NCBI RefSeq assembly: GCF_052180225.1
Contig: NZ_CP197467.1
Location: 4,030,793 to 4,054,792 of the forward strand
Direction: 5' to 3'
DNA: 24,000 bases
Source of the DNA: Arthrobacter sp. KN11-1C
GTDB lineage: Bacteria > Actinomycetota > Actinomycetes > Actinomycetales > Micrococcaceae
Both the position numbers and the translations under genes were made by a program. This document shows positions 767 to 18,425 of this stretch, piece after piece. Positions within the stretch are counted from its first letter, which is position 1; each line of letters begins with the position of its first letter. The notes under the pieces were generated by a model. That model saw only the letters and a program-made list of their open reading frames with translations, ran no database searches and had not been told where the DNA came from.

Positions 767-770
<4 letters not shown>

Positions 771-1816
771 CCGGGCACATGGTTGCTGTTTTCGATCCGG
801 GTGATCTTCGAAAGCCCTGACGGAAGATCCGGATCGAGGCCTTCACGGAGGCTCGTTGCTCGGGCGGCGAACTGGATGGGAATTATCGCCAAGAACGGAA
901 CCCACTCCGGCACCACTTCCGGGATAGTGACAACCTGACCTCCGATCGGTGGGGGGTTGCTGCCGATGTACACCGTGGTTGCGCCTCTTGCCAATCCCCC
1001 TTCGACTACCTGGGCCGCAAGATGGGCGCCCACCGAGTCCGCGGCGATGGCGACGACCGTGGTAGTCGCCGACGCGGAATTGATGCTTCCGTGGAGGAAT
1101 TCGCTAGCTTCAAAGACGGACGCCGGAAGAAGCAACGTTTCCCGGAGTTTGATCGCTCCTTCTTCTGCAACAGCTTCCGCGAAGCCTTCCCCCGCGAGTA
1201 CAAATCCCGAAGCCAACGTGGTAAATCGCGCTCTTTCGTCGTGCAAAACCTGGGTCATTCTCCGCGGAATCTCCGCAATGGCGTCGCTCAACTGACCGGG
1301 CCGGGATGACATTGCGATGCCGAGCAGTGCCGCCAATGAAGCTGTGAAGCTCTTCGTCGCAGGAATAGCAACTTCCACACCTGCCCTGTAGTCAACGACG
1401 AGATCCGAGGGAACAAGCGCGGCCAACTCGGAATCCGGTGAATTGGTCACAACAATCAGCCGGGCGCCCAGGGAAAGAGCCCGCCTCGCGGCAGCCAGGA
1501 TTTCCCGGCTCTCCCCCGACTGGGATATGGCGATGACTGCTGCACGGCGAAGATCCGTTGCGGTTGTTCCCCAGCCGAGCTGGGCAGGGGACACCAAGTA
1601 GGCGGGCTTTCCCGCGACGTTCCGGAAAACCTCAGCAGCGTACGTGGCTGCGGAACGAGATGAGCCGCGGCCGAGCAACACGACAAAGTCCGCTCCTTCC
1701 AGTACCGCGGCCAGGGAGTCAGCCTTTGACCCCGCCTCCCGTAGTGCTGAAGCCACCCGATCGGGCTGTTCGTACATGTCCTCGAGCATCCACTCGCCAG
1801 GAGTTTTTCCATTCAT
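767..1816 (-). CDS. double SIS-domain sugar-phosphate isomerase/deglycase-like protein (FrlB / GlmS-isomerase-domain / AgaS-like)
   Basis: 349 aa. The N-terminal SIS signature is VVLLGRGSSRSAATYAAEVF ... AISQSGESREILAAARRA ... GARLIVVTNSPDSELA. A second SIS-like half follows, giving the size and two-domain layout of FrlB/GlmS C-terminal domain proteins. GAAGGGA lies 8 nt before the ATG at 1816. Confidence 0.85.
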
Positions 1817-1854
1817 TGCGGCGGTCCCTTCTGCATGTTAGCGTGATACGACTG

Positions 1855-1867
1855 ATAATGATGTTAC
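1855..1867. promoter_or_regulatory. candidate operator/-10 element ATAATGATGTTAC in the SIS / aminotransferase divergent promoter region
   Basis: This 13-mer matches ATAATGTTGTTAC at 12057-12069 in 12 of 13 positions. It lies in the 70-nt divergent intergenic region and contains a GATAAT -10-like hexamer for the plus-strand operon. Confidence 0.35.
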
Positions 1868-1886
1868 AACAACATTGGGAGCTAGT

Positions 1887-3284
1887 GTGGAAACTCTTTC
1901 CGAGTCCCCGGACTCGATTTCTATGTCTTCCGACCGTAAAGGCGCCCTGGTTGACAGTGCTGTCAAGCATCTGTGGCGGCACGGCGTAACTGCCGAGGAG
2001 ACGCTCCGAGCCGAGGGTCCGGTGGCTGTAAGTGCCCAGGGGGTATACATCGACGATATCGATGGACGCCGGTATCTGGACGCTCTTTCGGGGGGCTCGG
2101 CGGCGGCCACCCTTGGACATGGCCGTGATGACGTGGCGGACGCGGTTTCCAGGCAGATGCGGAATATGGCGTGGGTTTCCCTGCGTACTTTCCTTAACGA
2201 ACCGTCGATCCGGCTGGCCGAGCGCATCGCGCAGATCGCCCCAGGGGACCTCACAACTTCCTTTTTCGTCAGCTCTGGTTCCGAGGCGGTGGAGAGCGCC
2301 ACCCAGATCGCCAAGTCCTATCATAAGAAGCGGGGCAATCCGTCAAAAACGAAGTTCCTGTACCGGAAGACCAGCTATCACGGCACCAGTCTGATCGGTG
2401 CAAGCGCCAGCAGCAGCCCCGAATTCCGGGAATGGTTTCAACCCCTCGCACCAGGATTCATCGAGCTTGACGCCTGCTACGCCTACCGCCGGCCCGCGGG
2501 TATGACCGTGGAAGAATACGGGGAGCTCTGCGCTCAGGCCATTGAGGACGAAATCCTCACACAAGGTCCCGACACCGTCGCCGGCATCCTCGCCGAAGCC
2601 ATTCCTGCTGCGTTGGTCCTGACGCCGCCGCCCAACTATCTGCAACGTCTTCGTGAGATCTGCAACAAATACGACATCTTGTGGATCGATGACGAGGTGT
2701 TCATCGGCGTTGGCCGGACCGGAAAATACTTCGGGTTTGAGCACTACGGCGTACAGCCCGACATTGTTACCTCGTCCAAAGGCATCACCGGAGGTTACAT
2801 CCCGCTCGGGGCGGCCATCGCCTCGCAGCGCATCATGGATGTGCTGCTCGAGGGGTCCCAGGCCAAAGTCGCCGGCCACACGTACTCCGCACATCCTGCC
2901 GCCTGCGCCGCCGGCCTCGCAGTTCTCGACGCGATCGAGAATGAGGACCTGGTCCAGAATGCAGACGTTCTCGGTTCATGGATGCTGGACCAGTTCCGCG
3001 AATTCGGCGAACGCCGCCCGCATGTGGGGGATGTCAGAGGCAAGGGCATGCTTATGGGCATTGAACTTGTTCGAGACACCAAGACCCGTGAGCCGTTCCC
3101 GGCAGCGTCGGGCGTGGGCAAGAAGGTCGTCCAAACGGCCATGAACCAGAACTTCATGTGCCGGGCGTCGGGAGACGTTATCACCCTCTTTCCAGCCCTC
3201 GTCTCGACCCGATCCGAAGTTGAAGACATGGTCACGGCGACCATGCGCGCAATCGATGAAGTCCTCAATGACCTTCCAAAATAG
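1887..3284 (+). CDS. class-III (omega/acetylornithine-type) PLP aminotransferase
   Basis: The ORF is open from TTG 1875. I prefer GTG 1887 (GGGAG at 1877-1881, 5-nt spacer), which gives 465 aa. Signatures: SGSEAVESA, DEVFIGVGRTGKYFGFEHYGVQPDIVTSSKGITGGYIPLGA (PLP lysine context), and the GHTYSAHP motif. Confidence 0.9.
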   Translation: METLSESPDSISMSSDRKGALVDSAVKHLWRHGVTAEETLRAEGPVAVSAQGVYIDDIDGRRYLDALSGGSAAATLGHGRDDVADAVSRQMRNMAWVSLRTFLNEPSIRLAERIAQIAPGDLTTSFFVSSGSEAVESATQIAKSYHKKRGNPSKTKFLYRKTSYHGTSLIGASASSSPEFREWFQPLAPGFIELDACYAYRRPAGMTVEEYGELCAQAIEDEILTQGPDTVAGILAEAIPAALVLTPPPNYLQRLREICNKYDILWIDDEVFIGVGRTGKYFGFEHYGVQPDIVTSSKGITGGYIPLGAAIASQRIMDVLLEGSQAKVAGHTYSAHPAACAAGLAVLDAIENEDLVQNADVLGSWMLDQFREFGERRPHVGDVRGKGMLMGIELVRDTKTREPFPAASGVGKKVVQTAMNQNFMCRASGDVITLFPALVSTRSEVEDMVTATMRAIDEVLNDLPK

Positions 3285-3309
3285 CGAGTCATCTGACGGA
3301 GGCGGAAGA

Positions 3310-4524
3310 GTGGAATTCATCGAACAGGTCTGCGCACGACTGGAAGCTACGGCCGTACGGGACCACATGAACGTCGCAGAAGCCATTACGACCCAGTTCG
3401 CCCTCGTGGATGCCGCGCAGCGCGTGATGGGCTCGGACGCGGTTTTCACCGAAGACTACGGGCAGGTCAGGGACTTGGCGACGGTCGGTTTCGGAGGCGG
3501 AGGACGGCCCAGAAGTACGGCCAATGTCGAACAGGTGCTGGCCGACTTCTTCGGAACCGAAGATGCTGTACTGATTCACGGCGCAGGTTCGGGTGCAATC
3601 CGGGGAATGCTCAACGCCGGTCTCAGGCCGGGGGCCAAAGTCGTGCTGCACAACGCGCATCCATATAAGACAACTCTGCCGGCCATGAATCACATGGGAC
3701 TGCAGCTGGTCCACGCGGACTTCAATGACTTGAAAGGCCTCAGGGACACGCTGCATAACGCCCGGCCCGACGGGATCTACGTCCAGCACGTTCCACAGCA
3801 GCTCGGTGACTCCCACGACATTGCCGCAGTCATCGAATCCGCGAGGGAGATCTGCGGCGCGGATGCGGCCATCCTCGTCGATGACAACTACGCAGTGATG
3901 CGTGCCCGGAAGATCGGCGCTCAAATGGGTGCCAATGCATCCGCGATTTCGCTGTTCAAACTCCTCGCCCCCACACCCATCGGGGTAGTCGTAGGAGACG
4001 GGAAGCTGGTCAATTCGATACGCCTGGATCTGTCGTCCGCCGGTTGCCAGGTACAGGGATCGCAAGCCATGGGAGCGTTGCGCATGCTGGTTCACGCACC
4101 CATTGCCCTGGCGATTCAAAACCAGACCGTGCTCGATGCAACGCAGCGCATCAACGAACTGGCGATTTCCGGGGAGCTTCCCTTTGTCCACCGGGCTTTC
4201 GCCGCGCAACCAGGAATCCGATCCATCGTGCTTACCTTCGACCGCCCTCTGGCGGAAGAATTTGTTCGGTCCGCATGGCGAAACGGGTCCCCCAGCCAGT
4301 CCGTCGGTGAAGAAGCCCAGTATGAGTTCCTGCCCCTGTTCACTTACCTGACAAGCACCTTCCTCAAGGCCATGCCAGGGCTCGAGCAATACGCCATCCG
4401 CATCAACCCGATGCGTTCGGGGCCGGACACCATCGTGCGCATTTTGCGGGCCAGCCTCTCCGACGAATCGTTCCGCAACGCCGTTTCCTCGCTCGAAACG
4501 GCTAAGTCTTCCTCCGAGCGTTGA
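3310..4524 (+). CDS. YhfS-like fold-type-I (SelA-like) PLP-dependent enzyme
   Basis: The ORF is open from 3220. I prefer GTG 3310 (GGAGG at 3298-3302, 7-nt spacer), which gives 404 aa. The N-terminal [37 protein letters not shown], and SLFKLLAPTPIGVVVG (SelA-like SGDKLLGGPQAG lysine loop) fit my recollection of the E. coli YhfS family. Confidence 0.75.
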   Translation: MEFIEQVCARLEATAVRDHMNVAEAITTQFALVDAAQRVMGSDAVFTEDYGQVRDLATVGFGGGGRPRSTANVEQVLADFFGTEDAVLIHGAGSGAIRGMLNAGLRPGAKVVLHNAHPYKTTLPAMNHMGLQLVHADFNDLKGLRDTLHNARPDGIYVQHVPQQLGDSHDIAAVIESAREICGADAAILVDDNYAVMRARKIGAQMGANASAISLFKLLAPTPIGVVVGDGKLVNSIRLDLSSAGCQVQGSQAMGALRMLVHAPIALAIQNQTVLDATQRINELAISGELPFVHRAFAAQPGIRSIVLTFDRPLAEEFVRSAWRNGSPSQSVGEEAQYEFLPLFTYLTSTFLKAMPGLEQYAIRINPMRSGPDTIVRILRASLSDESFRNAVSSLETAKSSSER

Positions 4525-4547
4525 CACATACCAATAAGGACATGAAC

Positions 4548-5114
4548 ATGAAAGACACGCTGCTAGTCCCCTTCAGTTTTGCCATCGATACGGTCAACGG
4601 AACACTGACTCCTGAACGTCCTCCGGTGCAACGTCGCCTCGACGACATGAAGACCGCCTACGCCCAGGAAACTTCCGGCGACGACCTCGTATACGAGGTG
4701 CGACAGATCGACGTCCCCACCACGAACTCAAACCTTCTTTCCTCGACCACTACGCTCTACCCGGGGAAGACCAACGGCGAGTACTACATGACCAAGGGCC
4801 ACTTCCATCAGAAGCGTGACCGCGCGGAAGTTTACGTCGGCCTCTCCGGAGAAGGCAGACTGCTGATGGCCTCCGAAAGCGGGGAGGTCGTGGTAGAGGA
4901 AATGCGCGCCGGAAGCGTTAATTACGTGCCAGGGGGGTGGGCCCACCGCAGCGTCAACGTAGGCGAAGAACCGCTGGTGTTCTACGCCGTCTATATTGCA
5001 GATGCCGGGCAGGACTACCTCGCCATCGAACATCAGGGCGGCTTTCCGGTCATCATCGTCGAGGGCGAAAACGGACCCGAAGCCGTGCCAAACCCAAGGT
5101 TTCAGCAGGCATGA
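4548..5114 (+). CDS. cupin-type glucose-6-phosphate isomerase (archaeal-type cPGI)
   Basis: 188 aa from the second ATG (AAGGA at 4536-4540, 7-nt spacer); ATG 4542 is also possible. Metal-ligand motifs TKGHFHQKRDRAEVY and YVPGGWAHRSVNVGEEPLVFYAVY..DAGQDY match the Pyrococcus/Thermococcus cupin PGI signature (T.GH.H...DRAEVY ... YVPP.WAHR..N.G). Confidence 0.85.
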   Translation: MKDTLLVPFSFAIDTVNGTLTPERPPVQRRLDDMKTAYAQETSGDDLVYEVRQIDVPTTNSNLLSSTTTLYPGKTNGEYYMTKGHFHQKRDRAEVYVGLSGEGRLLMASESGEVVVEEMRAGSVNYVPGGWAHRSVNVGEEPLVFYAVYIADAGQDYLAIEHQGGFPVIIVEGENGPEAVPNPRFQQA

Positions 5115-6043
5115 CCACCGTTGCCATTACCCCCCGCGGGTTTCGCAGCAATGAGGGGAGGCATAAGGCATTGTTGCGGGACCACGGACTTAGTCCCCGC
5201 TACCCCGCGCAGGACAGACCGCTCACGGTGGAGGAGCTGAGCGAACTCGTGGCGGGCTGCCGGGCGGCCATAGTGGGACTTGACGATGTCTCCGAAAGGA
5301 TCCTGGCAACACCTGGGCTGGAAATCCTCGTCCGGTTCGGCGCAGGGGCGGATAACGTCGATCTTCTCGCAGCGCGCCGTCACGGCGTGAAAGTGGCCAC
5401 CATACCCGGGGCGACGGCGACGTCCGTCGCGGAGCTGGCCTTGGGACTCATGCTTGCCGCAGCCCGGAGGATCCTGCCTATGGACAGAAGCGTCAGGCAG
5501 GGCTCCTGGCAGCGGCAAACGGGCTTTGAGCTCTCGGGTCGTTGCCTCGGACTGGTGGGAGCCGGACGGATCGGTCAGGAAGTTGCGGTACGGGCCAAAG
5601 CCCTTGGCATGGATGTCATAGCTTTCGACCCTTTCGCCGCCGTGTCGCCGCTAGCATTGGTCACCTTTGAGGAACTGTTGAGCCGTTCCGACGTGATCTC
5701 CATCCATGCCCCTCTGACCTCGGAGACTGCGGGTCTCTTCGACGCGAACGCTTTGGCGGCGATGCGTCCCGGAAGTGTCTTGGTCAACACCGCCCGTGGG
5801 GGGATCATTGACGAGGCAGCTCTGGCGGCCGCGCTGAAGAGCGGACCGCTTTCCGCCGCCGCGCTTGACTCGTTTGCGGACGAACCAACCAGGGAGACCG
5901 CCCTGTTCGAGTTGGAGAACATCGTGCTCACTCCCCATTGCGGGGCCACCACCGTCCAGGCCGTTGAACGGGCCGGCGTGATGGCGGTCGAAGAGGTGCT
6001 GCGGGCGTTGGCCGGCCGGCCGATGCTGGGAACGATTGACTGA
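5111..6043 (+). CDS. D-isomer-specific 2-hydroxyacid dehydrogenase (phosphoglycerate dehydrogenase-like)
   Basis: 310 aa from ATG 5111, which overlaps the cPGI stop (ATGA at 5111-5114). The NAD fold is GLVGAGRIGQEVAVRAKALGMDVIAFDP. The catalytic region is NTARGGIIDE ... TPHCGATT. Confidence 0.85.
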   Translation: MTTVAITPRGFRSNEGRHKALLRDHGLSPRYPAQDRPLTVEELSELVAGCRAAIVGLDDVSERILATPGLEILVRFGAGADNVDLLAARRHGVKVATIPGATATSVAELALGLMLAAARRILPMDRSVRQGSWQRQTGFELSGRCLGLVGAGRIGQEVAVRAKALGMDVIAFDPFAAVSPLALVTFEELLSRSDVISIHAPLTSETAGLFDANALAAMRPGSVLVNTARGGIIDEAALAAALKSGPLSAAALDSFADEPTRETALFELENIVLTPHCGATTVQAVERAGVMAVEEVLRALAGRPMLGTID

Positions 6044-6740
6044 GCCCGGCGGTCTCCGGGCTGCCGACTGTTCGGCAGCCCGGGCCCGGGGCCGCGCCGC
6101 GGCTGCCCTTCTATTCGATCTTGACGGGTTACTAATCGACAGCGAAGATGCCTGCTTTGAGGCGGCAAAGACTGTCCTGGCGCGGCACAGCGGTCTCACG
6201 CTTCCGGCAGCCTGGTACGGCGCGCAGGTGGGGAAGTCTGCCGCGGAGACATACGATAGTCTGCGCACGGATTTTCGTCTTCGTCCCCGGCTTCAGGAAC
6301 TGCTCGCGGAGCGCCATGAATTGCTGGCACGCTGGTACGAAGCCCCAAAGGTTCTTCCAGGTGCGGAAGCGCTGGTTCTTGAAGCGGTGCGTGGCGGAAA
6401 ACGGCTCGGCGTCGTTTCCTCGTCACCGCAGTCCCTGGTTGATGCGGCCCTCAGCGCCCTGCCATTCGGGGGCCGCTTCGATGCCGTCGTTGCGGCCGAC
6501 CATGCGATGGTGTCGAGGCTGAAACCGTTCCCGGACCCGTACTGGGCGGCGTGCACGCTGCTGGACTTGGATCCTGGCGACGCACTCGCCTTGGAAGACT
6601 CATCCTCCGGGGCTATTGCTGCGGTGCTAGCCGGCATCCCCACTGTCGCGGTCCCCAGCCGCTGGACAGCGGGCCAGCCGTTCCCAGATGGAGTCCTGAA
6701 GGTGGGGAGCCTGCTGCACCTGTTGGCGGACAGCGACTGA
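6036..6740 (+). CDS. HAD-superfamily phosphatase (beta-phosphoglucomutase/sugar-phosphatase subfamily)
   Basis: 234 aa. Motif I is LLFDLDGLLIDSE, motif II VVSSS, motif III KPFPDPY, and motif IV LEDSSSGAIAAVLAG. TTG 6036 is the only available start, and it overlaps the upstream gene by 8 nt. Confidence 0.8.
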   Translation: MTEPGGLRAADCSAARARGRAAAALLFDLDGLLIDSEDACFEAAKTVLARHSGLTLPAAWYGAQVGKSAAETYDSLRTDFRLRPRLQELLAERHELLARWYEAPKVLPGAEALVLEAVRGGKRLGVVSSSPQSLVDAALSALPFGGRFDAVVAADHAMVSRLKPFPDPYWAACTLLDLDPGDALALEDSSSGAIAAVLAGIPTVAVPSRWTAGQPFPDGVLKVGSLLHLLADSD

Positions 6741-6746
6741 ACCGAC

Positions 6747-8450
6747 CTACGTCGTGGGGGCGGGAAGAGCGTTCAACCGAACCAGAATACTTTCTATACC
6801 CCCCAGATCCCTTGCCCGGAGGGCCTCCTCAGTCGGGCCTGCCAGCAGCCGGGTGTCCAGGACCCGGATCTGCGCCTTAAGCTGCGGCACGAGACCGGGA
6901 GCGACACTCAGGCTGCGAAGACCCAGGCCTATCAGCAGCGGCAGCACACGGACGTCACCGGCAAGTTCACCACAGAGCGACACAGGCGTACCGGACGCGG
7001 ATCCCGCCCTTGCGATGAACGCCAGCATGCGGATCACCGCCGGACTGATCTCGTTGTAGAGGTGTTGCACCCCTGCATTGTTCCGGTCGGAGGCCATCAG
7101 GTATGCCGTCAGATCATTGGACCCAATGCTCAGAAAGTCGCTCTCCTCGGCGAATTCGTGCGCGAGGATGGCCGCACTGGGCACCTCGATCATCACCCCG
7201 ATCCGGAGAGGCGCGCCGGCTTCGACAGCAATGAGGTCTCGGACCTCGTCCAGTTCCCGGAGCTCTGAGACCATGGGGACCATGACGCGGATGTTCGGAT
7301 ACTCCGCTGATGCCCGCCCGAGCGCCCTAAGCTGCGCCGAAAAGACGTCGCGGTGCGCCAAGCTGAGCCGCACGCCTCGCACCCCCAAGAAGGGATTCTC
7401 CTCGGCGGGCACGCTCAGACCGGTCAACGGCTTGTCTCCGCCGATATCGAGAGTCCGGAAAATAATGGGGCGACCGGCTGCATCCCTTGCCGCGGCACAG
7501 TAGGCGCGGAACTGCGCCTGCTCGTCGAGGAGCTGTCCGGCCTTGATAAACAGCAGTTCGGTTCTGAACAGCCCTACACCGTCTGCCCCGAAGGCAACAG
7601 CACGGGAGACATCTTCGGCGCTGCCCGCATTGGCGTAGACGGCTACGCCGATTCCATCCAGGGTGTGGACGGGGGTCGGGTCGATTTCCCAGACGGATTC
7701 CTTGACAGCGTTAAAGGCAGCCAGATCCGAGGCGGACGGATTGATCTGCAATTCGCCGGTCGATCCGTCGACCGTCGCTTGGATTCCGTCCTCCGCGAGA
7801 GCCATCAGCCCGGGAACAGACACCACGGCAGGAATGCCCAGCTGGCGGGCAAGGATCGCCGCATGTGACGTCCGTGCGCCCGCCTCTGTCACGATCGCCC
7901 TGACCATGGAAGGGTCCAGCCCTATGGTGTCCGACGGTGTAAGTTCCTGAGCAAAAAGAATGACCGGTTCCCAGCCAGAAACCAGTGGCCGGACTGAAGC
8001 CGCCGACGTCCCGGGGTTGGTCTCCTGGAGGTGGCGCACGACTCTCTTCGCGAGGTCGCGGATATCTGCAGAACGTTCCCGCAAGTAGGGGTCGTCCAGG
8101 AGCTGCAGTTCGTCAGCAAGTTCGCCGCTGACGGTCCATACCACGCGTGCCGCGTCCCCTCCCGCAGTGATGCCGGCAACGATTGGATCGAGCCACTCAG
8201 CATCGTCCATCATCGAGAGCTGGACTTCAAAAATTGCGGCATGACCGGCGCCGAGCCGCTCGGTAGCGTCGGCGACGACGTCCAGAAGTTCGGCCTTGCT
8301 GCTCCGTAAGGCCGTATCGAGGTCGGAAAGCGAACTGGAAGAACGTTGGTCTTCCGGCTCTTCGTCACTGAAAATGAAGCGTTCGTCCCGGAATACCTGT
8401 ACAAGGGCCGTCGCCCGGCCAGGAGACACTCCCAATCCCAGAAGCTTCAT
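6747..8450 (-). CDS. ptsI: phosphoenolpyruvate-protein phosphotransferase (PTS Enzyme I)
   Basis: 567 aa. The active-site His region is GARTSHAAILARQLGIPAVV. The PEP-binding TIM-barrel motifs are GLFRTELLF, RTLDIGGDK, ENPFLGVRGVR, SIGSNDLTAY and CGELAGD. The ATG overlaps the HPr stop (ATGA at 8447-8450). Confidence 0.95.
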   Translation of the reverse strand: MKLLGLGVSPGRATALVQVFRDERFIFSDEEPEDQRSSSSLSDLDTALRSSKAELLDVVADATERLGAGHAAIFEVQLSMMDDAEWLDPIVAGITAGGDAARVVWTVSGELADELQLLDDPYLRERSADIRDLAKRVVRHLQETNPGTSAASVRPLVSGWEPVILFAQELTPSDTIGLDPSMVRAIVTEAGARTSHAAILARQLGIPAVVSVPGLMALAEDGIQATVDGSTGELQINPSASDLAAFNAVKESVWEIDPTPVHTLDGIGVAVYANAGSAEDVSRAVAFGADGVGLFRTELLFIKAGQLLDEQAQFRAYCAAARDAAGRPIIFRTLDIGGDKPLTGLSVPAEENPFLGVRGVRLSLAHRDVFSAQLRALGRASAEYPNIRVMVPMVSELRELDEVRDLIAVEAGAPLRIGVMIEVPSAAILAHEFAEESDFLSIGSNDLTAYLMASDRNNAGVQHLYNEISPAVIRMLAFIARAGSASGTPVSLCGELAGDVRVLPLLIGLGLRSLSVAPGLVPQLKAQIRVLDTRLLAGPTEEALRARDLGGIESILVRLNALPAPTT

Positions 8451-11186: not shown

Positions 11187-11594
11187 CTAGTCCTCCTCTA
11201 GAAGCGCACACAAGTGAACCGTTATGTAGGAGATTTCCGACTCTGGCACGGACCGTCCCAGCTCATCCTCGAAACTGTGCATGATCCCCCCGATCACTGT
11301 CTTTTCCCGGTCTCGACCGGTGATTTCCGATTCGACGGCCTCCGATGCCTCCGCTTCCGGCTCACCGCGCTGCAGGCGGGTCAGAGCGATGACAAGGTGT
11401 GTCACGAAGGGAGCCGCATTCTCCTCCGTCAATTCCAGAGAGAATTGCCTGGTAATTTCAAGGAGGGCAGTCTCGGCCAGCTTCCGTGCCACGGGGCTCG
11501 CCATTCCCGAATCTTCCAGAAGGTCCAGACGTTCGCGAAAGGGCTCCCGGACATCGGCGGGCGCCGTGTCATGCGGCTGGGTTGTGCCCGTCAC
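11187..11594 (-). CDS. YhfY-like PRD-only protein (single PTS regulation domain, no output domain)
   Basis: 135 aa. The two PRD histidine contexts are FVTHLVIALTRLQRGE (H66) and EISYITVHLCALL (H127). The GTG start overlaps the YhfU-like stop (GTGA at 11591-11594). Confidence 0.7.
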   Translation of the reverse strand: MTGTTQPHDTAPADVREPFRERLDLLEDSGMASPVARKLAETALLEITRQFSLELTEENAAPFVTHLVIALTRLQRGEPEAEASEAVESEITGRDREKTVIGGIMHSFEDELGRSVPESEISYITVHLCALLEED

Positions 11595-11992
11595 GATGAT
11601 GCGCCGGCGGTGCGGGACCGGTGGGCCAGGATCTCCCTGACCAGCATCGGAATTGCGACACCCGACTGCTCATAGGCAAACCCGAAAGCCATCCGGCCTT
11701 CGCCCACAAGTTCGGCCACATGCTTTTCGGTAACGGGCATGCCCGGAGTACCTGCGATGCCCACCAGATTGGCACCGAGCGTCGCCGTCGCGGCGGCCAG
11801 CGCGCCGCCGCCCCCGGACCAGCACGTGCCCAGGTAGTAGTCGGCTTGACCGCTCTTCACCAGCCTTGCTCCCTGCATGTCCCCCATTGCGACAGCCTGC
11901 ACTCGGTCACCCCCGGCGTCCTGGGCCATTTTGGCCATGATCTTGGCATCTACTCCGGCAAGGACAATCCGAACCGCTCGATTTTCTATCAC
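11591..11992 (-). CDS. YhfU-like DUF2620 protein
   Basis: 133 aa from GTG 11992 (AAGGAG, 6-nt spacer); the track ORF extends to 12043. The conserved block VKSGQADYYLGTCWSGGGGALAAATATLG ... GRMAFGF ... AIPMLV fits the YhfU/DUF2620 family as I recall it (KSGQ.DYY.G.C..G.G.AL). Confidence 0.7.
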   Translation of the reverse strand: MIENRAVRIVLAGVDAKIMAKMAQDAGGDRVQAVAMGDMQGARLVKSGQADYYLGTCWSGGGGALAAATATLGANLVGIAGTPGMPVTEKHVAELVGEGRMAFGFAYEQSGVAIPMLVREILAHRSRTAGASS

Positions 11993-12056: not shown

Positions 12057-12069
12057 ATAATGTTGTTAC
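12057..12069. promoter_or_regulatory. candidate operator/-10 element ATAATGTTGTTAC in the yhfU-operon / gntR divergent promoter region
   Basis: It matches 1855-1867 in 12 of 13 positions. It overlaps a consensus TATAAT hexamer at 12056-12061 (plus strand, about 57 nt upstream of the gntR ATG). It is followed by a GTTGTTAC-G-TTGTTATTAC direct repeat. Confidence 0.35.
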
Positions 12070-12118
12070 GTTGTTATTACACGTGTGACGCTCAATCGAG
12101 AAGGAAGTGGGAGTCATA

Positions 12119-12877
12119 ATGTCCCGGCCTACGCCCTCGGTCCGCCGTAATGTGCGGATCCCCTACTACGAGCAGGTCAAGCTTCTGATTCTGAAGGAAA
12201 TCGAATCGGGAAACATGCAGCCCGGCGACATGCTCACTTCGGAGGGTGAGATGTGTGAACGCTACGAGGTCTCCCGCACCGTGGTCCGCCAGGCCATCGG
12301 CGAGCTCGTCAACGAGGGCATACTGGTTCGCCAACAGGGCAAGGGCACCTTCATTTCCCGGCCGAAGGTCAGGGAACAGTTCATGCAGAGCACCGTAGGC
12401 TTTTTTGAAGATCTGAGCCTCCGCGGCCACTCCGTACAAAGCAAGGTCATCAGCTGCAAGCTTGTCGGCGCGGAAAACACCGTTGCCGAGGCACTGGAAA
12501 TTGACCCCGGGTCGAAATGCGTGGAAATCACCCGTCTTCGCTACGTCAATGAAGATCTGATCGCTTTTACAAAGTCCTACATCAACAGCGCGGATGCCAA
12601 CATGGTCGACGACCTGATTGCTGCCGACCTTTCCACTAATTCGCTGTACCGGACTCTTGAAGAAAACTGGGGCCTGCGCATTGAGTCCGGCAGGCGCTCC
12701 CTTGAAGTGGTGACGACCAGCGGCGTGCTGCCGGGCATTCTCGAAGTCAAGGCAGGGACCCCGGCGCTCTACATCGAATCGATCGGACGAGACGCTGGCG
12801 GCACCCCTGTCGAGTATTTTCGTGCATGGCATCGGGCCGACCGGACCCGACTGGAAATTGACGTAGTTCGTCGGTAG
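12119..12877 (+). CDS. GntR-family transcriptional regulator, HutC/FrlR-type with a UTRA effector domain
   Basis: 252 aa from ATG 12119 (GGGAG, 5-nt spacer). The winged-HTH is LTSEGEMCERYEVSRTVVRQAIGELVNEGILVRQQGKGTFISRPKV. The C-terminal region of about 150 aa is typical of UTRA domains. Confidence 0.9.
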   Translation: MSRPTPSVRRNVRIPYYEQVKLLILKEIESGNMQPGDMLTSEGEMCERYEVSRTVVRQAIGELVNEGILVRQQGKGTFISRPKVREQFMQSTVGFFEDLSLRGHSVQSKVISCKLVGAENTVAEALEIDPGSKCVEITRLRYVNEDLIAFTKSYINSADANMVDDLIAADLSTNSLYRTLEENWGLRIESGRRSLEVVTTSGVLPGILEVKAGTPALYIESIGRDAGGTPVEYFRAWHRADRTRLEIDVVRR

Positions 12878-13149: not shown

Positions 13150-13168
13150 GTAATCATATTATGATGAG
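13150..13168. promoter_or_regulatory. candidate operator GTAATCATATTATGATGAG (contains the perfect palindrome ATCATA-T-TATGAT at 13153-13165) upstream of php
   Basis: It is identical to 15980-15998 in 16 of 19 positions and lies 44 nt upstream of the php ATG. It overlaps a possible -10 (CATATT at 13155-60 or TATTAT at 13157-62) placed 17-19 nt after TTGATC (13132-37). Confidence 0.45.
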
Positions 13169-13211: not shown

Positions 13212-14147
13212 ATGAGTGATTTTGTACGAACGGTGCTAGGTGATGTGAAACCGGAGGAACTGGGCTTGACTCTGGGCCATGAGCATCTCATCACCCGCCC
13301 AGCTGACCGTCTCCTTCACGAGGATCAGGGCAGCGAGGACCTGCTACTCGACGACGAAGACCTTGCGGTGGCAGAATTGGCGAGGTTCCACGAGGCTGGC
13401 GGTGGAGCCCTTGTTGAACTCACAACGAAAGAGTACGGCCGGGACGCCGAAGCACTCGGGCGCATTGCTGCCCGGAGCAAGATCCATATCGTTGCCACAA
13501 CGGGTCACGTCACGCCCTATTTCTGGGCCGGCGTGCTCGACGTGGACTCCATGTCGCGGGAGTGCCTTGTCCAGGAGATGGTGGAGGAACTGACCGTGGG
13601 TATTGGAACCAGCGGAGTAAGGGCCGGCGTCATAAAGGCCGGGAGCTCCAAGGGTGAAATCACGGAGACGGAAGAGCGGGTGCTCCGTGCCGCTGCGGCC
13701 GCTCAGAAGCTGACTGGGGCACCCATCACGACGCATACTACGGCCGGCACCATGGCGACGGCGCAGGCCCGCATATTGTTGGATGCGGGGGCCGACCCGG
13801 AACGTGTCTGCATCGGTCATTTGGACAGGTCCCTCGATTTTGAGGAACAGCGCCACCTTGCCGAGGAAGGCTTCCGTCTCGGCTACGACCAGACGTCCAA
13901 GGACTGGTACGAACCGGACAGCCGGCGGGTCGACTTCATCGTGCGGCTCGTGGAACTCGGACTTGGCGACAGGGTCTGTCTCTCAGGCGACCTGGCTCGG
14001 CGGAGCGCTTTGGTCTCCTGGGGCGGAGGCCCGGGATACACCCATATCCCCCACCGTCTGGTTCCGTGGCTTCGACGAGCCGGCCTGGGACAGGACGCAC
14101 TTACGACGCTGGTCTCGAACCCGGCCAAACTCCTTACCTGGTCCTGA
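13212..14147 (+). CDS. php: phosphotriesterase-homology protein (Php/YhfV; amidohydrolase superfamily)
   Basis: 311 aa from ATG 13212 (GGAAGG upstream). The N-terminal metal motif is LGLTLGHEHL. The remaining amidohydrolase beta-strand-end ligand contexts are VIKAG, ITTHT, IGHLD and LSGD. The track ORF start at 13068 adds a non-homologous extension. Confidence 0.85.
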   Translation: MSDFVRTVLGDVKPEELGLTLGHEHLITRPADRLLHEDQGSEDLLLDDEDLAVAELARFHEAGGGALVELTTKEYGRDAEALGRIAARSKIHIVATTGHVTPYFWAGVLDVDSMSRECLVQEMVEELTVGIGTSGVRAGVIKAGSSKGEITETEERVLRAAAAAQKLTGAPITTHTTAGTMATAQARILLDAGADPERVCIGHLDRSLDFEEQRHLAEEGFRLGYDQTSKDWYEPDSRRVDFIVRLVELGLGDRVCLSGDLARRSALVSWGGGPGYTHIPHRLVPWLRRAGLGQDALTTLVSNPAKLLTWS

Positions 14148-14281: not shown

Positions 14282-15664
14282 TCAGAGGGAAACGCCCACG
14301 AGGGCTAGCAGATTGGCAATGATGCCTACGCCAATGGCTGTCACCGCGCCCAGGGCCATCGGCATCACCGGCGCATTGGACCGCTGGTTGATGAACCAGG
14401 CGCCAATGACGGCCGCCACTCCCCAGCCGCCGGCAAATGCTGCTGCGGCCATTGCCCCGCCCGCCAGGAATGCGATTTCCATAACGTGGAAGATCGCGGT
14501 TCGCATGGTGTCCGCAATTTCCCGAACAACGGTGAACCGGTCCAGGTTCTTGAAGAACCACAGGAGGCTGAACACTTCGATGACACGGAAGACGGCCACG
14601 GCGCCGGCAGCAACCCACGGGTTTGGCATCAGCATGGCGATGGATGGTTCCAGGGAGGTTCCTGTAAGGATCCACACGCCGGTCATGACGGCGGTCGTAT
14701 ACTTCATTGGGACGAAGGCCAGGAACCAGGCGGCCGCTGCCAGGGCGGCAGGGATTGCCATTCCGTGAAGATATAGTGAGGCCGAAATCGGGTCGCTGGC
14801 CATGTACCCGAGATTGTACGCCGCCCCTGCCAGCGCATGGATGACAATGATCAGCGGGAGGTTCCGTTTGATGCGTCCGGTATTTTTTCTGAAGAAATCG
14901 TCTTCATCAGGGGCGTTTTGGACCGAACCCGAACCGGCCTCATCCGTGAGCCATTCCGGCGGCACATCGCCGAATTCATTTCCTGGCCGACGTGATTCGC
15001 GCACGACTAGAACCACGAGATAAACGAGTCCCGCCCCGAAGGCCCAGGCCGGTGGATACGGCAGCCCGAGTGTCGCGGCGGCAGCCCACACGGCTGTGGC
15101 CACAATGGCTGAGCAGAGCCCCTGCTTGAGTCCGTAGTGGTAAAAAACTGTGAGAACGGCAAACAGGAAGAATGCTTCAAGGGCCGGCTGGGTGATGAGC
15201 TGAACAGTTCTTGCCATCTCAATAGGTGCGGCAGCCATGAGGTCCGAAGCCAACCGAAGAACGACGGCAACAGCCGCGCTCCACGCTGCTCCCAGAACGA
15301 ATGAGGACAGCACCCCGAAAAGCCCACGCCGCGATTTGTACCAGGCCTCATCGTGAGTCGTCCGCATTGCAACGCCGATGTAGTCGGTTGCAATGAAGAT
15401 CAGGTAGAGCATGGGAATGGCATGGCCGAGCGAGAACGGCAGACCGAACGCCCACAGGAACCCGAGCCCCAGCGTAAAGGACGTGCGTCGGATGGATTTG
15501 GTGTCCACGTTGCCGGCCTTATAGGAGGGCAAGATCGGTCGGAGCCCGTCATGGAATATTGCCACCCCGCGGTTCGCAAGAACTGCGGATAACCCACCCA
15601 TCGCGGCGAAAAGAATGGCTTGTGGCAACAGAGGGACGGGCATAGCTACTTCCGAACCGAACAT
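14282..15664 (-). CDS. YhfT-like polytopic inner-membrane protein (putative transporter)
   Basis: 460 aa, hydrophobic throughout with at least 10 predicted TM stretches and a central charged loop (RESRRPGNEFGDVPPEWLTDEAGSGSVQNAPDEDDFFRKNTGRIKRN). GGAGG lies 6 nt before ATG 15664. The size and architecture match E. coli YhfT as I recall it. Confidence 0.75.
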   Translation of the reverse strand: MFGSEVAMPVPLLPQAILFAAMGGLSAVLANRGVAIFHDGLRPILPSYKAGNVDTKSIRRTSFTLGLGFLWAFGLPFSLGHAIPMLYLIFIATDYIGVAMRTTHDEAWYKSRRGLFGVLSSFVLGAAWSAAVAVVLRLASDLMAAAPIEMARTVQLITQPALEAFFLFAVLTVFYHYGLKQGLCSAIVATAVWAAAATLGLPYPPAWAFGAGLVYLVVLVVRESRRPGNEFGDVPPEWLTDEAGSGSVQNAPDEDDFFRKNTGRIKRNLPLIIVIHALAGAAYNLGYMASDPISASLYLHGMAIPAALAAAAWFLAFVPMKYTTAVMTGVWILTGTSLEPSIAMLMPNPWVAAGAVAVFRVIEVFSLLWFFKNLDRFTVVREIADTMRTAIFHVMEIAFLAGGAMAAAAFAGGWGVAAVIGAWFINQRSNAPVMPMALGAVTAIGVGIIANLLALVGVSL

Positions 15665-15743: not shown

Positions 15744-15881
15744 TTAAGCTGCGCTCCCGGTTCGCCGTCTTCGCATCGGCTCCAGCAGAGCCCACAGGTG
15801 CACTGCCGGCGCAATTGTTGAACCCACTATGACCAGAGCTGCGTTCAACAGAATTGGTCCAGGTCCTTGTCGCTTTTTCAT
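15744..15881 (-). CDS. possible 45-aa single-TM membrane protein upstream of the yhfT-like gene
   Basis: MKKRQGPGPILLNAALVIVGSTIAPAVHLWALLEPMRRRRTGSAA has a basic N-terminus, one hydrophobic helix of about 22 aa and a basic C-terminus. GGAG lies 4 nt before the ATG. It sits downstream of the predicted promoter at 15986-16013. It is short and has only moderate GC3. Confidence 0.3.
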   Translation of the reverse strand: MKKRQGPGPILLNAALVIVGSTIAPAVHLWALLEPMRRRRTGSAA

Positions 15882-15979
15882 ATTGCTCCATCTCGGAGTG
15901 ACGAAGCGCTTGCCCCAGCCACTAATACAAAGGCCCCGGCGACCGCCGTGGGTCCGTCCGCTTGCGAGCATCCAACTTT

Positions 15980-15998
15980 GTCATCATATTATTATGAC
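15980..15998. promoter_or_regulatory. candidate operator GTCATCATATTATTATGAC (GTCAT-N9-ATGAC)
   Basis: It is identical to 13150-13168 in 16 of 19 positions and overlaps the -10 of the predicted minus-strand promoter. Confidence 0.45.
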
Positions 15999-16019: not shown

Positions 16020-16111
16020 TTCGTGTCTAGGTTAGCTTGCGGCTACCGAGCGGCTTTACCGGTTGTCATCGAAAGCCTGAGCTGCCCTCGCGGTGGATCG
16101 TTCCGCCCGCC

Positions 16112-16732
16112 CTAGAGCAGGTCCCGCACATGGCCCGTTTCGTTCACCGAAATGAGGCTGCGAGCAGCCCTTTGGTCAGCGATCACCCGGGTGATTGATC
16201 CATATGCCGGAGAATAGGGAAGGGCAAGCCAAAAGGCTTTGTCTTGGCCCAAAACATGGCCGGTATAAGCATTAATGACGCCCGCGTGGGTAAACAACAC
16301 GGCAGTACCACCTGGATGTTTACGGATGATCGACTCTACGGCCCCGACAACTTGAGCTCGGAACGCGGTGAGATCGATTTCAGGGTCATAAAAATGTCCC
16401 TGCCGAAGCGCCTGCCATCGGGGGTCGTTCGCCTTTTTGAGTTCTTCAACCGGCACATACGCGGGGCCGGCCGAGTCCCATTCAGCAATCTCCTGGACGA
16501 GGGTCGCTGTGATACTAAGCCGGTTTGCCAACGGTGATGCCGTCTCCACTGCACGCAGTAAGGGCGAGGAATAGATCTCATCGATCCGTTCCGCAGCCAA
16601 AAAGTCAGCGACCTGTTGGGCTTGACGGACGCCGTCGGCTGCCAGACCGGGGTCCGCTGCCGCAGTCGGAACCGTTTCGGTTGGCCCGTCGACACGCAGC
16701 GGAAGCCCGTGCCGAACCATTATGAGTCGCAC
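16112..16732 (-). CDS. histidine phosphatase (phosphoglycerate-mutase-like) family protein
   Basis: 206 aa from GTG 16732, which is 4 nt after the aldolase stop. The RHG motif is LIMVRHGLP. Also present are SSPLLRAVETA and the second catalytic His context LFTHAGVINA. The track ORF (start 16885) overlaps the aldolase gene and adds non-homologous sequence. Confidence 0.8.
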   Translation of the reverse strand: MRLIMVRHGLPLRVDGPTETVPTAAADPGLAADGVRQAQQVADFLAAERIDEIYSSPLLRAVETASPLANRLSITATLVQEIAEWDSAGPAYVPVEELKKANDPRWQALRQGHFYDPEIDLTAFRAQVVGAVESIIRKHPGGTAVLFTHAGVINAYTGHVLGQDKAFWLALPYSPAYGSITRVIADQRAARSLISVNETGHVRDLL

Positions 16733-16736
16733 CGCC

Positions 16737-17372
16737 CTATCCCACCTGAATGGATAGGGCGTCACGAAACCGTTTCGCCCCTGACCTGACGAGTTCATAC
16801 GCGCCCTGCTCGGCGGACAGGCTCGGCACCAGATCTGACCCGGCGAACACGGCCACCGCACCGGCTTGGAGAAATGCAAGAGCATTTTCTGGCGTCACCC
16901 CGCCCGATGGCACCAAGGCAAGGTGGGGAAACGGTCCCAAGAGGTCGCGCAGGTACCTGGGGCCTGCGGTATTCGCGGGAAATATTTTTATTGCCGCGGC
17001 TCCCATCGAATGGGCGTTGTAGACCTCGGTCGGGCTCAGCGCACCGGGGAAAAAGGGTATGTCATGTTCGTTGCATACGGCGGCCACTGCGGGGACGAGG
17101 CCAGGCGACACGACAAACTTGGCTCCCGCAGAGATCGCTTCTCGGGCCTGATCTGCGGTCAGGATCGTGCCAGCGCCCACCACCGCTGATGCCTCGGAAG
17201 CGACTTCCCGGATGATTTCCGCGGCTGATGGGATAGTGAAAGTGAACTCGACGCACCGGATACCTTCACCGCTGAGTGTACGGACCAGCCGCACGGGATC
17301 ATCCACGGATTTGGCTCGGATGACCGCTGCGACTCTATCTTCTTTGAGGACGGTCAATACTGGAGTAGTCAT
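16737..17372 (-). CDS. eda: 2-dehydro-3-deoxyphosphogluconate / 4-hydroxy-2-oxoglutarate aldolase (Eda family)
   Basis: 211 aa. Signatures: AVIRA, IRCVEFTF, VGAGTILT, KFVVSPG, FFPGALSPTEV, IKIFPA (Schiff-base Lys) and VPSGGVTPEN. Confidence 0.85.
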   Translation of the reverse strand: MTTPVLTVLKEDRVAAVIRAKSVDDPVRLVRTLSGEGIRCVEFTFTIPSAAEIIREVASEASAVVGAGTILTADQAREAISAGAKFVVSPGLVPAVAAVCNEHDIPFFPGALSPTEVYNAHSMGAAAIKIFPANTAGPRYLRDLLGPFPHLALVPSGGVTPENALAFLQAGAVAVFAGSDLVPSLSAEQGAYELVRSGAKRFRDALSIQVG

Positions 17373-17423
17373 AATTCACTTCCTACGGTCGTGGATGTCT
17401 GATTCTAGGGCGCAAATAGGGAG

Positions 17424-18425
17424 TCACAATCCGGCGGTGGCCATCGATGTGCCGCTCTCGCTTTTGCCCGACAATGCCAACTCGGACAAACGGTCGAATG
17501 AAGGTCCGGAGGCGGGGATCTCAATTCCGAATACTTCCGCGATGACCTGTGTCCAGCCGTGAATGAAATAGACCCAGCCATCAACGACGGTGACGTTTAG
17601 CTGAGCGTCAGCCGACCTCGCTTGGTCAAGAAAGACAAGGTCACCCCGGTAGTTCAAGTCCCAGACAATCGCGTTCTCCGGGAACCGGGCCCGGTCGGTA
17701 AGCGGGGATCCGGGCATGTCCTTACCCAGGCCAGTGGCATTTATGATTACGGAACCCTCCGGGAGGTTCTGCAGCACCGCATCGTTGTCCTGCGGATTCG
17801 GGGTATGCACCAGTTCCAGGGGGACATCCGACTTCAGTTCGTCGTGGACCCGGCGAAGACTCGCCAATCGTTGCTGGCTGCGGTTCGAAATTACGACCCG
17901 CCGGGGCCGGTCCGTTCCCCTTTCCGGGCGGGTCAGATACCAACTGATCGCAACTGCCGAGCCACCAGCCCCCATGACGAACACGTCGGCCTCACGGTCA
18001 CGCCAGTAACCGCGGGGGATAAAATCCTCCAGAGCAAAGCCTGACGAAATAGGATCCTTCGCATGAGCGGTGAGGATTCCACCCGGCTTCGAAATACAGC
18101 TGACCTCCGACATCAGCGCCGCAAGGGGATCTACGACATCGAACAAATCCACGGCAGCGTTGTAGAGATCAATCTTGTGCGTCGTTACAAGGGCGCCAAG
18201 ACTGAGGGGGTCATCCTTAATAAAGGCCACCACATTCCTGTAGGCGTCAGGCGATGCATGCAGCGGCATGTCAATGCCGACAAGTTGAACGCCGCTCAAC
18301 CCCAGCTCCTGAGCCCACAGGGGAAATACCCTGCGAATGGAAGAGCTGCCGGTCGTCACCCCAATGAAATACAAGGTTGGACGGACCGCTGGCTGGAGAG
18401 TGTCATGTTTATAGGTGATATCCAC
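17424..18425 (-). CDS. shikimate/quinate 5-dehydrogenase-like NAD(P) oxidoreductase (AroE family, divergent)
   Basis: 333 aa from GTG 18425 (AAGGG, 6-nt spacer). The N-terminal substrate domain has YFIGV...S.S ... LGALVTTHK. The dinucleotide loop is VMGAGGSAVAI. The C-terminal INATGLG ... VWDLNY matches AroE-like topology. Confidence 0.7.
   Translation of the reverse strand: MDITYKHDTLQPAVRPTLYFIGVTTGSSSIRRVFPLWAQELGLSGVQLVGIDMPLHASPDAYRNVVAFIKDDPLSLGALVTTHKIDLYNAAVDLFDVVDPLAALMSEVSCISKPGGILTAHAKDPISSGFALEDFIPRGYWRDREADVFVMGAGGSAVAISWYLTRPERGTDRPRRVVISNRSQQRLASLRRVHDELKSDVPLELVHTPNPQDNDAVLQNLPEGSVIINATGLGKDMPGSPLTDRARFPENAIVWDLNYRGDLVFLDQARSADAQLNVTVVDGWVYFIHGWTQVIAEVFGIEIPASGPSFDRLSELALSGKSESGTSMATAGL

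Follow-up and report, generated by a model that had tools for sequence, protein, structure and literature searches.

The closest described relative of the locus analysed here is the yhfS-Z gene cluster of Escherichia coli, which belongs to the long-unassigned gene clusters of this species despite the fact that solved structures were found for three of its proteins (YhfS, 4J8L; YhfX, 4KBX; Php, 1BF6). In strain K-12 the cluster stands beside the genes of the fructoselysine system, in the order frlABCDR and then yhfS-T-U-php-W-X-Y-Z (reference locus L001). The literature on yhfS/T/U/W/X/Y/Z, DUF2620, PF10797/PF10941, the phosphotriesterase homology protein, and fructoselysine in combination with yhf yielded no functional assignment. 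An earlier note on the DNA studied here had described the yhf block as lacking an assigned pathway, and we likewise found no publication that assigns one; papers on yhf names in Bacillus subtilis deal with unrelated genes. None of the families concerned is new, and the cluster of E. coli is on record as uncharacterised. In this study we analysed a stretch of 24,000 nucleotides (the window) from Arthrobacter sp. KN11-1C (contig NZ_CP197467.1, positions 4,030,793 to 4,054,792), which contains an island of approximately 18 kb, where homologues of the yhf genes are combined with genes for enzyme I (EI) and HPr of the phosphoenolpyruvate (PEP)-dependent phosphotransferase system (PTS). We rate it as a catabolic island that is linked to the PTS and whose terminal components are not the canonical ones. 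Nothing was found published on a conserved link of the yhf core to a dedicated EI/HPr pair or on the extended module of Actinobacteria and Chloroflexi, nor on the RpiB-like nature of DUF2620 or the want of a solved relative of YhfT.

The proteins of the window were assigned by searches with Pfam and NCBIfam profiles, combined with a listing of open reading frames (ORFs) and frame-specific G+C content, and were compared with the E. coli K-12 region by tblastn. The family calls made previously for the ORFs of the island were borne out by these profile searches. Six proteins match their E. coli counterparts directly (E values from 4e-16 to 9e-88), with identities of 41% (YhfS), 40% (YhfX), 38% (YhfW), 35% (YhfU), 34-35% (Php) and 28% (YhfT). 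The direct sequence match of YhfY reached only E 0.12, and its correspondence is given by the PRD domain and by position; at this level, one homologue of each of the seven genes yhfS-T-U-php-W-X-Y is present, as the earlier note had claimed. Homologues of YhfZ, FrlA, FrlC and FrlD were not found among the window proteins, in agreement with the previous statement that the island has neither a FrlA-type permease nor a FrlD-type kinase. In place of a YhfZ-type regulator (HTH_41 and YhfZ_C domains) the island encodes a GntR/HutC-type protein (12107-12877, plus strand), whose predicted architecture, a GntR helix-turn-helix followed by a UTRA domain, was confirmed. This regulator stands where other clusters have YhfZ, and shares 54-59% identity with its counterparts in all loci that have a HutC-type regulator (hereafter type-B loci). 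The island further differs from the E. coli cluster in having its own HPr and EI and about ten extra enzymes, and in being divided into several divergent transcription units instead of a single operon.

The central part of the island is a tight operon on the minus strand, yhfU-Y-W-X-ptsH-ptsI, with overlaps of 4-10 nt; ptsH overlaps both the stop codon of yhfX and the start of ptsI. Its genes encode (i) YhfU (11591-11992), a DUF2620 protein with an invariant Cys51, (ii) a YhfY-like protein (11187-11594), with a stand-alone PRD as its sole domain (E 5e-9), (iii) a YhfW-like phosphomutase (9963-11183; Metalloenzyme domain) of the phosphopentomutase family within the alkaline-phosphatase superfamily, scoring above the cut-off of the family model NF009049 (435 bits, cut-off 254), (iv) a YhfX-like pyridoxal phosphate (PLP) enzyme of fold type III (8725-9972; Ala_racemase_N and YhfX-like_C; PDB 4kbx, E 1e-90), (v) HPr (8447-8728; TIGR01003, 83.9 bits, cut-off 47.9) and (vi) EI (6747-8450; all three EI domains; TIGR01417, 438.8 bits, cut-off 341.7). 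The phosphorylation-site motifs are present in EI (His in TSHAAI, and the Cys motif LCGE) and in HPr (His15 in GLHARPA). In YhfY both PRD histidines occur, within the motifs FVTHL and TVHLC, and the first of them is kept in 7/7 aligned homologues, including that of E. coli.

The double-SIS protein, the cupin-type isomerase, the aldolase and both phosphatases described below belong, as judged from their domains, to families acting on phosphorylated substrates, and a Pfam profile search revealed no kinase family among the ORFs of the island. A pathway composed of such enzymes would need a phosphate donor, since most of them belong to families that work on phosphorylated compounds and no kinase is encoded. 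We infer that EI and HPr are the sole encoded donor candidates, and that YhfY and the Cys protein YhfU are the sole plausible acceptors. That EI/HPr can serve a phosphorylation in the cytoplasm, or a switch based on a PRD, has precedents in the PEP-dependent dihydroxyacetone (Dha) kinase DhaKLM and the PRD regulators MtlR/LicT; in contrast to these, the island has no DhaK, DhaL or DhaM homologue, and its PRD is a separate protein of approximately 135 amino acids (aa). Another parallel is the L-ascorbate Ula system (UlaABC and the phospho-lactonase UlaG; locus L056), which is also EI/HPr-dependent, contains a lactonase-type hydrolase for a presumably phosphorylated intermediate and needs no kinase. 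The island differs from Ula and from canonical PTSs in having no EIIA/B/C family members, a YhfT whose fold is unmatched, and a Cys protein that is RpiB-like.

The conservation of the island was examined in 42 genome loci gathered via homologues of YhfT and YhfU, plus annotated contigs, all of which were scored with the window proteins. This census revealed one conserved gene set, its blocks largely in the same order, across Actinobacteria and Chloroflexota, in line with the earlier view that these genes form a system. A second Arthrobacter-type genome (L044) is collinear with the window, with 80-88% nucleotide identity. The genes for the phosphotriesterase (PTE)-family protein, the AroE-like dehydrogenase, the GntR regulator, YhfU, YhfY, YhfW, YhfX, HPr and EI recur in Streptomyces (L051+L054), freshwater Actinobacteria (L052/53), Microbispora (L003) and Sphaerisporangium (L011). 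In Streptomyces they are joined by the aldolase, the class-III aminotransferase, YhfS, the cupin isomerase, the 2-hydroxyacid dehydrogenase, the SIS protein, YhfT, a substrate-binding protein (SBP), ATP-binding cassette (ABC) genes and a short-chain dehydrogenase/reductase (SDR). In the freshwater Actinobacteria they are followed by the HAD protein, the 2-hydroxyacid dehydrogenase, the cupin isomerase, YhfS, the aminotransferase and the SIS protein, which is the order of the window. In Microbispora and Sphaerisporangium they are preceded by ABC genes and YhfT, and the latter also has the aldolase. Two Nocardioides loci (L009, L010) contain the core with the aminotransferase, the aldolase and the histidine phosphatase. 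A metagenome-assembled genome (MAG) of Chloroflexota (L046) has genes for the SIS protein, YhfX, YhfW, YhfT, SDR, YhfU, YhfS, PRD, HPr, EI, a second YhfS-like protein, the aminotransferase and ABC components.

The YhfZ-type clusters also occur in other Actinobacteria and in Chloroflexi. Clusters of the E. coli type (YhfZ-PRD-YhfU-YhfT and onwards) were seen in two contigs, one from Aeromicrobium and a further one of metagenomic origin, and a Chloroflexia MAG (L015, 6876-21210) carries one same-strand array without a php gene, encoding YhfZ, an M20 amidohydrolase, PRD, YhfU, YhfT, YhfS, YhfX, YhfW, an MttB-like protein (a non-Pyl methyltransferase homologue), HPr, a family-5 ABC system of the peptide/opine type, and EI. 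This array suggests that one common core is supplied from differing precursors, which might be N-modified amino acids.

HPr and EI thus lie amid the genes of the yhf core in three different arrangements, namely actinobacterial type B, the Chloroflexota locus L046 and the YhfZ-type Chloroflexia locus L015; together with the translational coupling of ptsH-ptsI to yhfU-Y-W-X, this upholds the previous proposal that EI and HPr are members of the system. Among the accessory proteins, the aminotransferase (58-72% identity in L009, L051, L052 and L046), the SIS protein (L054, L052/53, L046), the cupin isomerase (L044, L051, L052) and the 2-hydroxyacid dehydrogenase (L044, L051/54, L052) are recurrent members in Streptomyces and freshwater Actinobacteria, and the first two also in Chloroflexota. 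The AroE-like dehydrogenase is kept in every type-B locus, and in most loci the aldolase (51-56% identity) is a neighbour of YhfT or of the module. The island is a conserved module, clustered far beyond chance, since its gene set was met again in many other genomes, and it represents one conserved, probably catabolic system. The versions of Actinobacteria and Chloroflexi provide the clue that the core travels with its own EI/HPr and no kinase. This clue is hidden in E. coli because its ptsHI genes lie elsewhere; in enterobacteria the general ptsHI genes are not part of the yhf cluster.

The accessory genes point to the class of the substrate. The predicted double-SIS protein (767-1816, minus strand; two SIS domains in Pfam) aligns end to end with the isomerase domain of GlmS (E 2e-40; 138.8 bits, cut-off 381) and over its full length with the glucosamine-6-phosphate deaminase NagB-II (E 4e-38; 131.6 bits, cut-off 430); its PDB matches are 3hba, 8eol (E 3e-34) and 1moq. 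Judging from these alignments, it is a superfamily member nearer to GlmS-C/NagB-II than to FrlB. This putative amino-sugar-phosphate enzyme is a real member of the module. Divergently transcribed from it on the plus strand is a series of genes encoding (i) a class-III (omega) aminotransferase or phospho-lyase-type PLP enzyme (1875-3284, start possibly at 1923; Aminotran_3, E 3.5e-91), (ii) a YhfS-like PLP enzyme of fold type I (3310-4524; YhfS-like_C and a weak Aminotran_5 match; PDB 4j8l, E 4e-74), (iii) a cupin-type sugar-phosphate isomerase of the cPGI family (~4548-5114; cupin GPI PF06560, E 7e-30), (iv) a D-2-hydroxyacid dehydrogenase (5111-6043; 2-Hacid_dh) resembling phosphoglycerate dehydrogenase (PGDH), and (v) a HAD-IA sugar-phosphate phosphatase-like protein (6036-6740; HAD_2). 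On the minus strand, at the other end of the island, lie genes for a histidine-phosphatase-superfamily protein (16112-16732; His_Phos_1), an aldolase of the KDPG/KHG type (16737-17372; TIGR01182, 191 bits, cut-off 156), KDPG being 2-keto-3-deoxy-6-phosphogluconate, and a distant shikimate-dehydrogenase-like NAD(P) dehydrogenase (17424-18425). For the last of these the AroE-like label of the earlier note stands as a weak similarity (best NCBIfam E 3e-11; PDB 1nvt, E 1e-5) and the Pfam search gave no match, so the label is a loose one.

The Php-like amidohydrolase of the PTE family (13212-14147, plus strand) has as its nearest solved chain 3pnz (E 5e-47), which we take to be the phospho-sugar lactonase Lmo2620; its scores lie below the cut-offs of the equivalog model for phospho-furanose lactonases (NF045706, 122.6 bits, cut-off 630) and of the model PRK09875 (165.8 bits, cut-off 486). 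Three PLP enzymes occur here in combination with a glucosamine-6-phosphate-deaminase-like SIS protein, the PGDH-like 2-hydroxyacid dehydrogenase and the aldolase of the KDPG type; our guess from this mix is that the substrate may be an amino-sugar or else an acid derived from one, for example a 2-amino-2-deoxy-aldonate. The cupin isomerase and, in relatives, the ribose-type binding protein and the SDR are further genes pointing to the substrate class. The D-glucosaminate operon of Salmonella encodes a mannose-family PTS, an ammonia-lyase and a KDPG aldolase. The ammonia-lyase reaction on D-glucosaminate-6-phosphate in this organism is PLP-dependent (PMC9529869). The Salmonella system and the proposed pathway would have in common PTS-type phosphorylation, PLP-dependent removal of the amino group and a KDPG-type aldolase; the PLP enzymes are of other families, and the likeness is one of functional analogy only.

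YhfU was inspected with respect to its possible role as a phosphoryl acceptor. In 27 aligned DUF2620 proteins Cys51, located in the motif GTCWSGGGG, is invariant and Ser53 nearly so. The AlphaFold model is confident (pLDDT 95.4), and its 21 best Foldseek matches in the PDB are nearly all RpiB ribose-5-phosphate isomerases, with one LacAB galactose-6-phosphate isomerase (TM 0.55-0.69, probability 1.0), followed mostly by generic flavodoxin-like or receiver domains. According to this confident model the fold of YhfU is RpiB/LacAB-like, and the equivalent of the catalytic Cys-x-Thr is located where strand 3 ends. Cys51 aligns with the catalytic Cys66 of RpiB in two independent alignments, neither of them statistically significant, and Ser53 with Thr68 in the hhalign alignment, which is likewise not significant (probability 0.3%). 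YhfU differs from RpiB/LacAB in being shorter and in showing no sequence-profile relationship, and equivalents of His99 and of the C-terminal phosphate-binding helix are not evident in it. DUF2620 is its sole Pfam match; a profile search of 1.84 billion proteins with this small family yielded no more than 148 clusters (at 50% identity) and did not reach RpiB. The earlier idea that YhfU is an EIIB protein is not supported, because the model matches RpiB/LacAB and no EIIB was present among the 50 best Foldseek matches. The Cys-Gly-rich loop alone fits an isomerase as well as a phospho-Cys carrier. Single metagenomic proteins (P0142, P0155, P0176, P0269) fuse DUF2620 with a PRD, with a PTE domain of full length or with the N-terminal part of YhfT. 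Every such fusion was seen once, and the fusions mirror the gene order.

The YhfT-family polytopic membrane protein (14282-15664, minus strand; PF10797, E 8e-85) is the presumed transporter. Its structural model is also confident (pLDDT 90.7) and had no meaningful PDB match (best TM <0.25), and no internal repeat was detected in it; YhfT possibly represents a transporter fold not yet solved. The proposal that YhfT is an EIIC protein is not supported, in view of the missing fold match and of its occurrence without other yhf genes or EI/HPr. This second context was identified in several Actinobacteria (L045, 7857-16482; L055, 7151-16100; L002, L004, L006, L008), where YhfT is accompanied by a ribose-type binding protein, KDPG aldolase, SDR, a GMC oxidoreductase with its small subunit, an Ldh_2 dehydrogenase, an acid-sugar dehydratase resembling talarate/galactarate dehydratase (E 2e-84) and a HAD protein; in L055 a gene for a PfkB kinase lies close by. 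Further yhf genes and EI/HPr were absent from these loci. Since the aldolase and the SDR travel with YhfT even around an acid-sugar dehydratase, a sugar-acid-type end of the pathway is indicated. In two of these loci the binding protein alone accompanies YhfT, without an ABC ATPase or permease, which raises the possibility that YhfT is a binding-protein-dependent secondary transporter.

Comparison with L044 (5385-9908) revealed that in the window 4.5 kb are missing just upstream of yhfT, comprising genes for the ribose-type SBP (5252-6418 in L044), an ABC ATPase, a permease and the SDR; the SDR-YhfT pair is otherwise strongly kept, with 62-68% identity across genera. The deletion junction (15755-15890, minus strand) retains the first ~130 nt of the SBP gene as an ORF of 45 aa with a signal-peptide-like N-terminus, and yhfT now lies behind the promoter/operator of the lost gene.

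Operator-like, AT-rich elements were identified in all five promoter regions of the island. The palindrome ATCATNNNATGAT has three matches in the window against 0.37 expected, each of them in a promoter region: upstream of php (ATCATATTATGAT, 13153-13165), upstream of yhfT (the palindrome-like ATCATATTATTAT, 15983-15995) and between the aroE-like operon and pdxS (ATCATGTAATGAT, 18512-18524). The divergent SIS/aminotransferase and yhfU/gntR promoter regions have in common GTAACANCATTAT, a pattern derived from these two sites, with two matches against 0.04 expected; the elements are GTAACATCATTAT (1855-1867) and GTAACAACATTAT (12057-12069), respectively. All these elements, including those upstream of php and yhfU, are kept at the orthologous places of L044, in intergenic sequence that has otherwise diverged. 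Those upstream of yhfT and of the aroE-like operon overlap -10-like hexamers of minus-strand promoter-like sites; the promoter scan of the window, with 5 sites found against 4.4 expected, did not exceed chance and was used solely for this overlap. The motifs were not found in other genera, and they therefore support co-regulation within Arthrobacter only. On moderate evidence, the island may be regarded as a single regulon, presumably under the HutC-type protein of the cluster.

Taken together, these observations are best accommodated, with a probability of roughly 0.4, by a PEP-driven catabolic pathway (EI to HPr to YhfY and onwards) for an amino-sugar or sugar-acid-like compound. The amino-sugar or amino-/sugar-acid-like compound would enter through YhfT and, in relatives, also through the adjacent ribose-type ABC system. 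Phosphate from PEP would pass via EI and HPr to the conserved phosphorylatable histidines of the stand-alone PRD protein YhfY, and possibly from there to the invariant Cys of YhfU. Phosphorylation of the substrate might be coupled to its uptake by YhfT at the membrane, or might be cytoplasmic, as in the Dha kinase system. The phosphorylated intermediate would then be handled by Php (as a hydrolase of the phospho-sugar-lactonase type), by the phosphomutase YhfW and, if it is an RpiB-like isomerase, by YhfU; amino groups would be removed or moved by the PLP enzymes YhfX, YhfS and the class-III enzyme, the SIS enzyme and the cupin isomerase would yield hexose phosphates, and the KDPG-type aldolase would cleave a 2-keto-3-deoxy-phospho-acid. 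A bolder extension, which we consider distinctly doubtful, is that YhfY, YhfU, YhfT and the dedicated EI/HPr constitute an unrecognised terminal PTS branch, be it a permease family or a cytoplasmic PEP-dependent kinase system of a new kind, with the stand-alone PRD as phosphoryl carrier and the RpiB-like protein as Cys-phosphate or catalytic component. If phosphate does flow through the PRD protein or the RpiB-like Cys protein, this would be a new use of the PTS, and a terminal branch of this kind would give the yhfS-Z genes of E. coli their first function.

Several observations weigh against the PEP-driven pathway. No members of the EIIA, EIIB or EIIC families were found in any ORF with Pfam or NCBIfam; comparison of the YhfU, YhfT and YhfY profiles with E. 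coli UlaA/B/C, GatA/B, ChbA/B/C and RpiB by hhalign gave nothing significant, and the profile of YhfT revealed no similarity to EIIC in UlaA and ChbC. The Cys of YhfU follows strand 3, as in RpiB, and EIIB proteins carry theirs after strand 1. The PRD is classically a regulatory target of HPr and not a carrier. YhfT and the enzyme module bearing EI/HPr are separable, the latter occurring in L052/53 without YhfT within 10 kb, and HPr/EI were not seen in the retrieved part of the Nocardioides loci. The DUF2620 fusions may be read-through artefacts. Finally, the island may be decaying in Arthrobacter sp. KN11-1C, because the adjacent ABC transporter and the SDR have been lost.

Some of these points favour the main rival, a purely regulatory relay, in which EI and HPr phosphorylate YhfY, and perhaps the Cys of YhfU, so that together with a DNA-binding protein (of the HutC type in the window, YhfZ in other clusters) they form a split PRD-type regulator (comparable proteins, MtlR/LicR, carry helix-turn-helix, PRD and EIIB-like domains) or gate YhfT, the phosphate of the metabolites coming from an enzyme encoded elsewhere. 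PRDs are established regulatory targets of HPr and EIIB, the gene order YhfZ-PRD-DUF2620 occurs in L048, L059 and L015, a DUF2620-PRD fusion exists, EII components are absent from the island and YhfT is separable from the module. We nevertheless regard this relay as somewhat unlikely: a dedicated EI and HPr for regulation alone would be costly, their genes are embedded in an enzyme operon and not placed beside the regulator, the lack of a kinase is left unaccounted for in a set of enzymes most of which belong to families acting on phosphorylated substrates, and YhfU is enzyme-like, with the catalytic Cys-x-Ser/Thr positions of RpiB/LacAB kept. It is very improbable that the yhf core is the sole unit, with EI/HPr, the SIS protein, the cupin isomerase and the rest being adjacent by chance or belonging to a separate pathway. 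The block of YhfT, SDR and SBP does occur apart from the enzyme block, and in what was retrieved of the Microbispora and Nocardioides loci neither the SIS protein nor the cupin isomerase nor the 2-hydroxyacid dehydrogenase was found. Against this, Arthrobacter, Streptomyces and freshwater Actinobacteria have the same blocks side by side, and Chloroflexota have the majority of them, with the exception of the cupin isomerase and the 2-hydroxyacid dehydrogenase. A chance adjacency of EI/HPr in particular was rejected in view of their recurrence with the core, the overlaps of ptsH with yhfX and of ptsI with ptsH, and the related operator-like elements in all five promoter regions. A biosynthetic cluster was judged unlikely because of the transporter, the binding protein, the HutC-type repressor and the aldolase.

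The model of the earlier note, a PTS version of the fructoselysine/Amadori pathway with YhfT as EIIC, YhfU as EIIB, a FrlB-type deglycase, a FrlR-type repressor and a link to frl, seems improbable. It draws on the fact that a double-SIS enzyme and a HutC-type regulator, both also found with frlABCDR, are conserved members of the module; moreover, the best NCBIfam model of the regulator is NF008491/PRK11402, presumably FrlR-based (133.6 bits, below the cut-off of 269), DUF2620-YhfT fusions exist, and the M20 amidohydrolase and peptide/opine-type ABC system of L015 are compatible with amino-acid conjugates. The frl adjacency itself fares poorly. The K-12 order is as the earlier note had stated, but a contiguous stretch from frlB to yhfT is present in just 2950/5426 (54%) complete E. 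coli genomes, and genomes matching the yhfS-yhfT part alone occur among the matches listed. The yhf genes are flanked by cysG and trpS in 30 enterobacterial loci. An insertion of frlABCDR adjoining yhfS is confined among these to K-12-type strains of E. coli, to E. ruysiae and, in degraded form, to Shigella; it was not seen beside yhf in Citrobacter, Klebsiella, Enterobacter, Cedecea, Trabulsiella, Pluralibacter, E. whittamii and some E. coli. What places frl next to yhf is an insertion between cysG and yhfS that varies from strain to strain. The designation of the SIS protein as double-SIS was correct, but "FrlB-like" is too specific, as it shares 20% identity with FrlB and scores 23.6 bits (E 2.6e-5) with the FrlB model NF008481, whose cut-off is 430. 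The regulator is 29.5% identical to FrlR, with no frl genes nearby, FrlA, FrlC and FrlD have no counterparts in the island, and neither YhfU nor YhfT matched the fold that the model assigns to it. The recurrence of frl-type genes next to yhf in a distant phylum, previously taken to argue for a functional link, is thus not real evidence, because the adjacency is strain-variable and the SIS protein is of the GlmS-C/NagB-II type. The island is not a relative of the fructoselysine system.

The window has a G+C content of approximately 60%, and an Rfam scan revealed no RNA family in it. Arthrobacter strains are the nearest relatives, the YhfT of the window falling into one 90% cluster with proteins of Arthrobacter sp. 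KN11-1C and MA-N2. On its left side the island is bounded by the N-terminal part of a glutamate dehydrogenase (GdhA-like) gene (1-~340, minus strand), which runs off the window. An ORF of 113 aa (429-770, minus strand) overlaps the stop codon of the SIS gene; its codon-position G+C is coding-like, it had no family match and no homologue at any related locus, and its membership in the island is uncertain. Near the right end of the window (20307-24000, minus strand) lie genes for an ABC ATPase resembling PotA, for a double permease fused into one protein of 602 aa and for a partial binding protein. This transporter is probably unrelated to the island, because in L044 a peptidase M3 gene holds its place beside pdxS. 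The pdxS gene, encoding a PLP synthase subunit (18722-19639), is divergent from the aroE-like operon, with which it has the operator-like palindrome region in common, and pdxT is not adjacent to it. A truncated pdxS fragment (residues 3-157, 74% identity) is also located inside the Streptomyces cluster, between the SIS and yhfT genes (L054, 8645-9109). These occurrences hint at an old linkage of pdxS to the PLP-enzyme-rich island, or at joint horizontal transfer.

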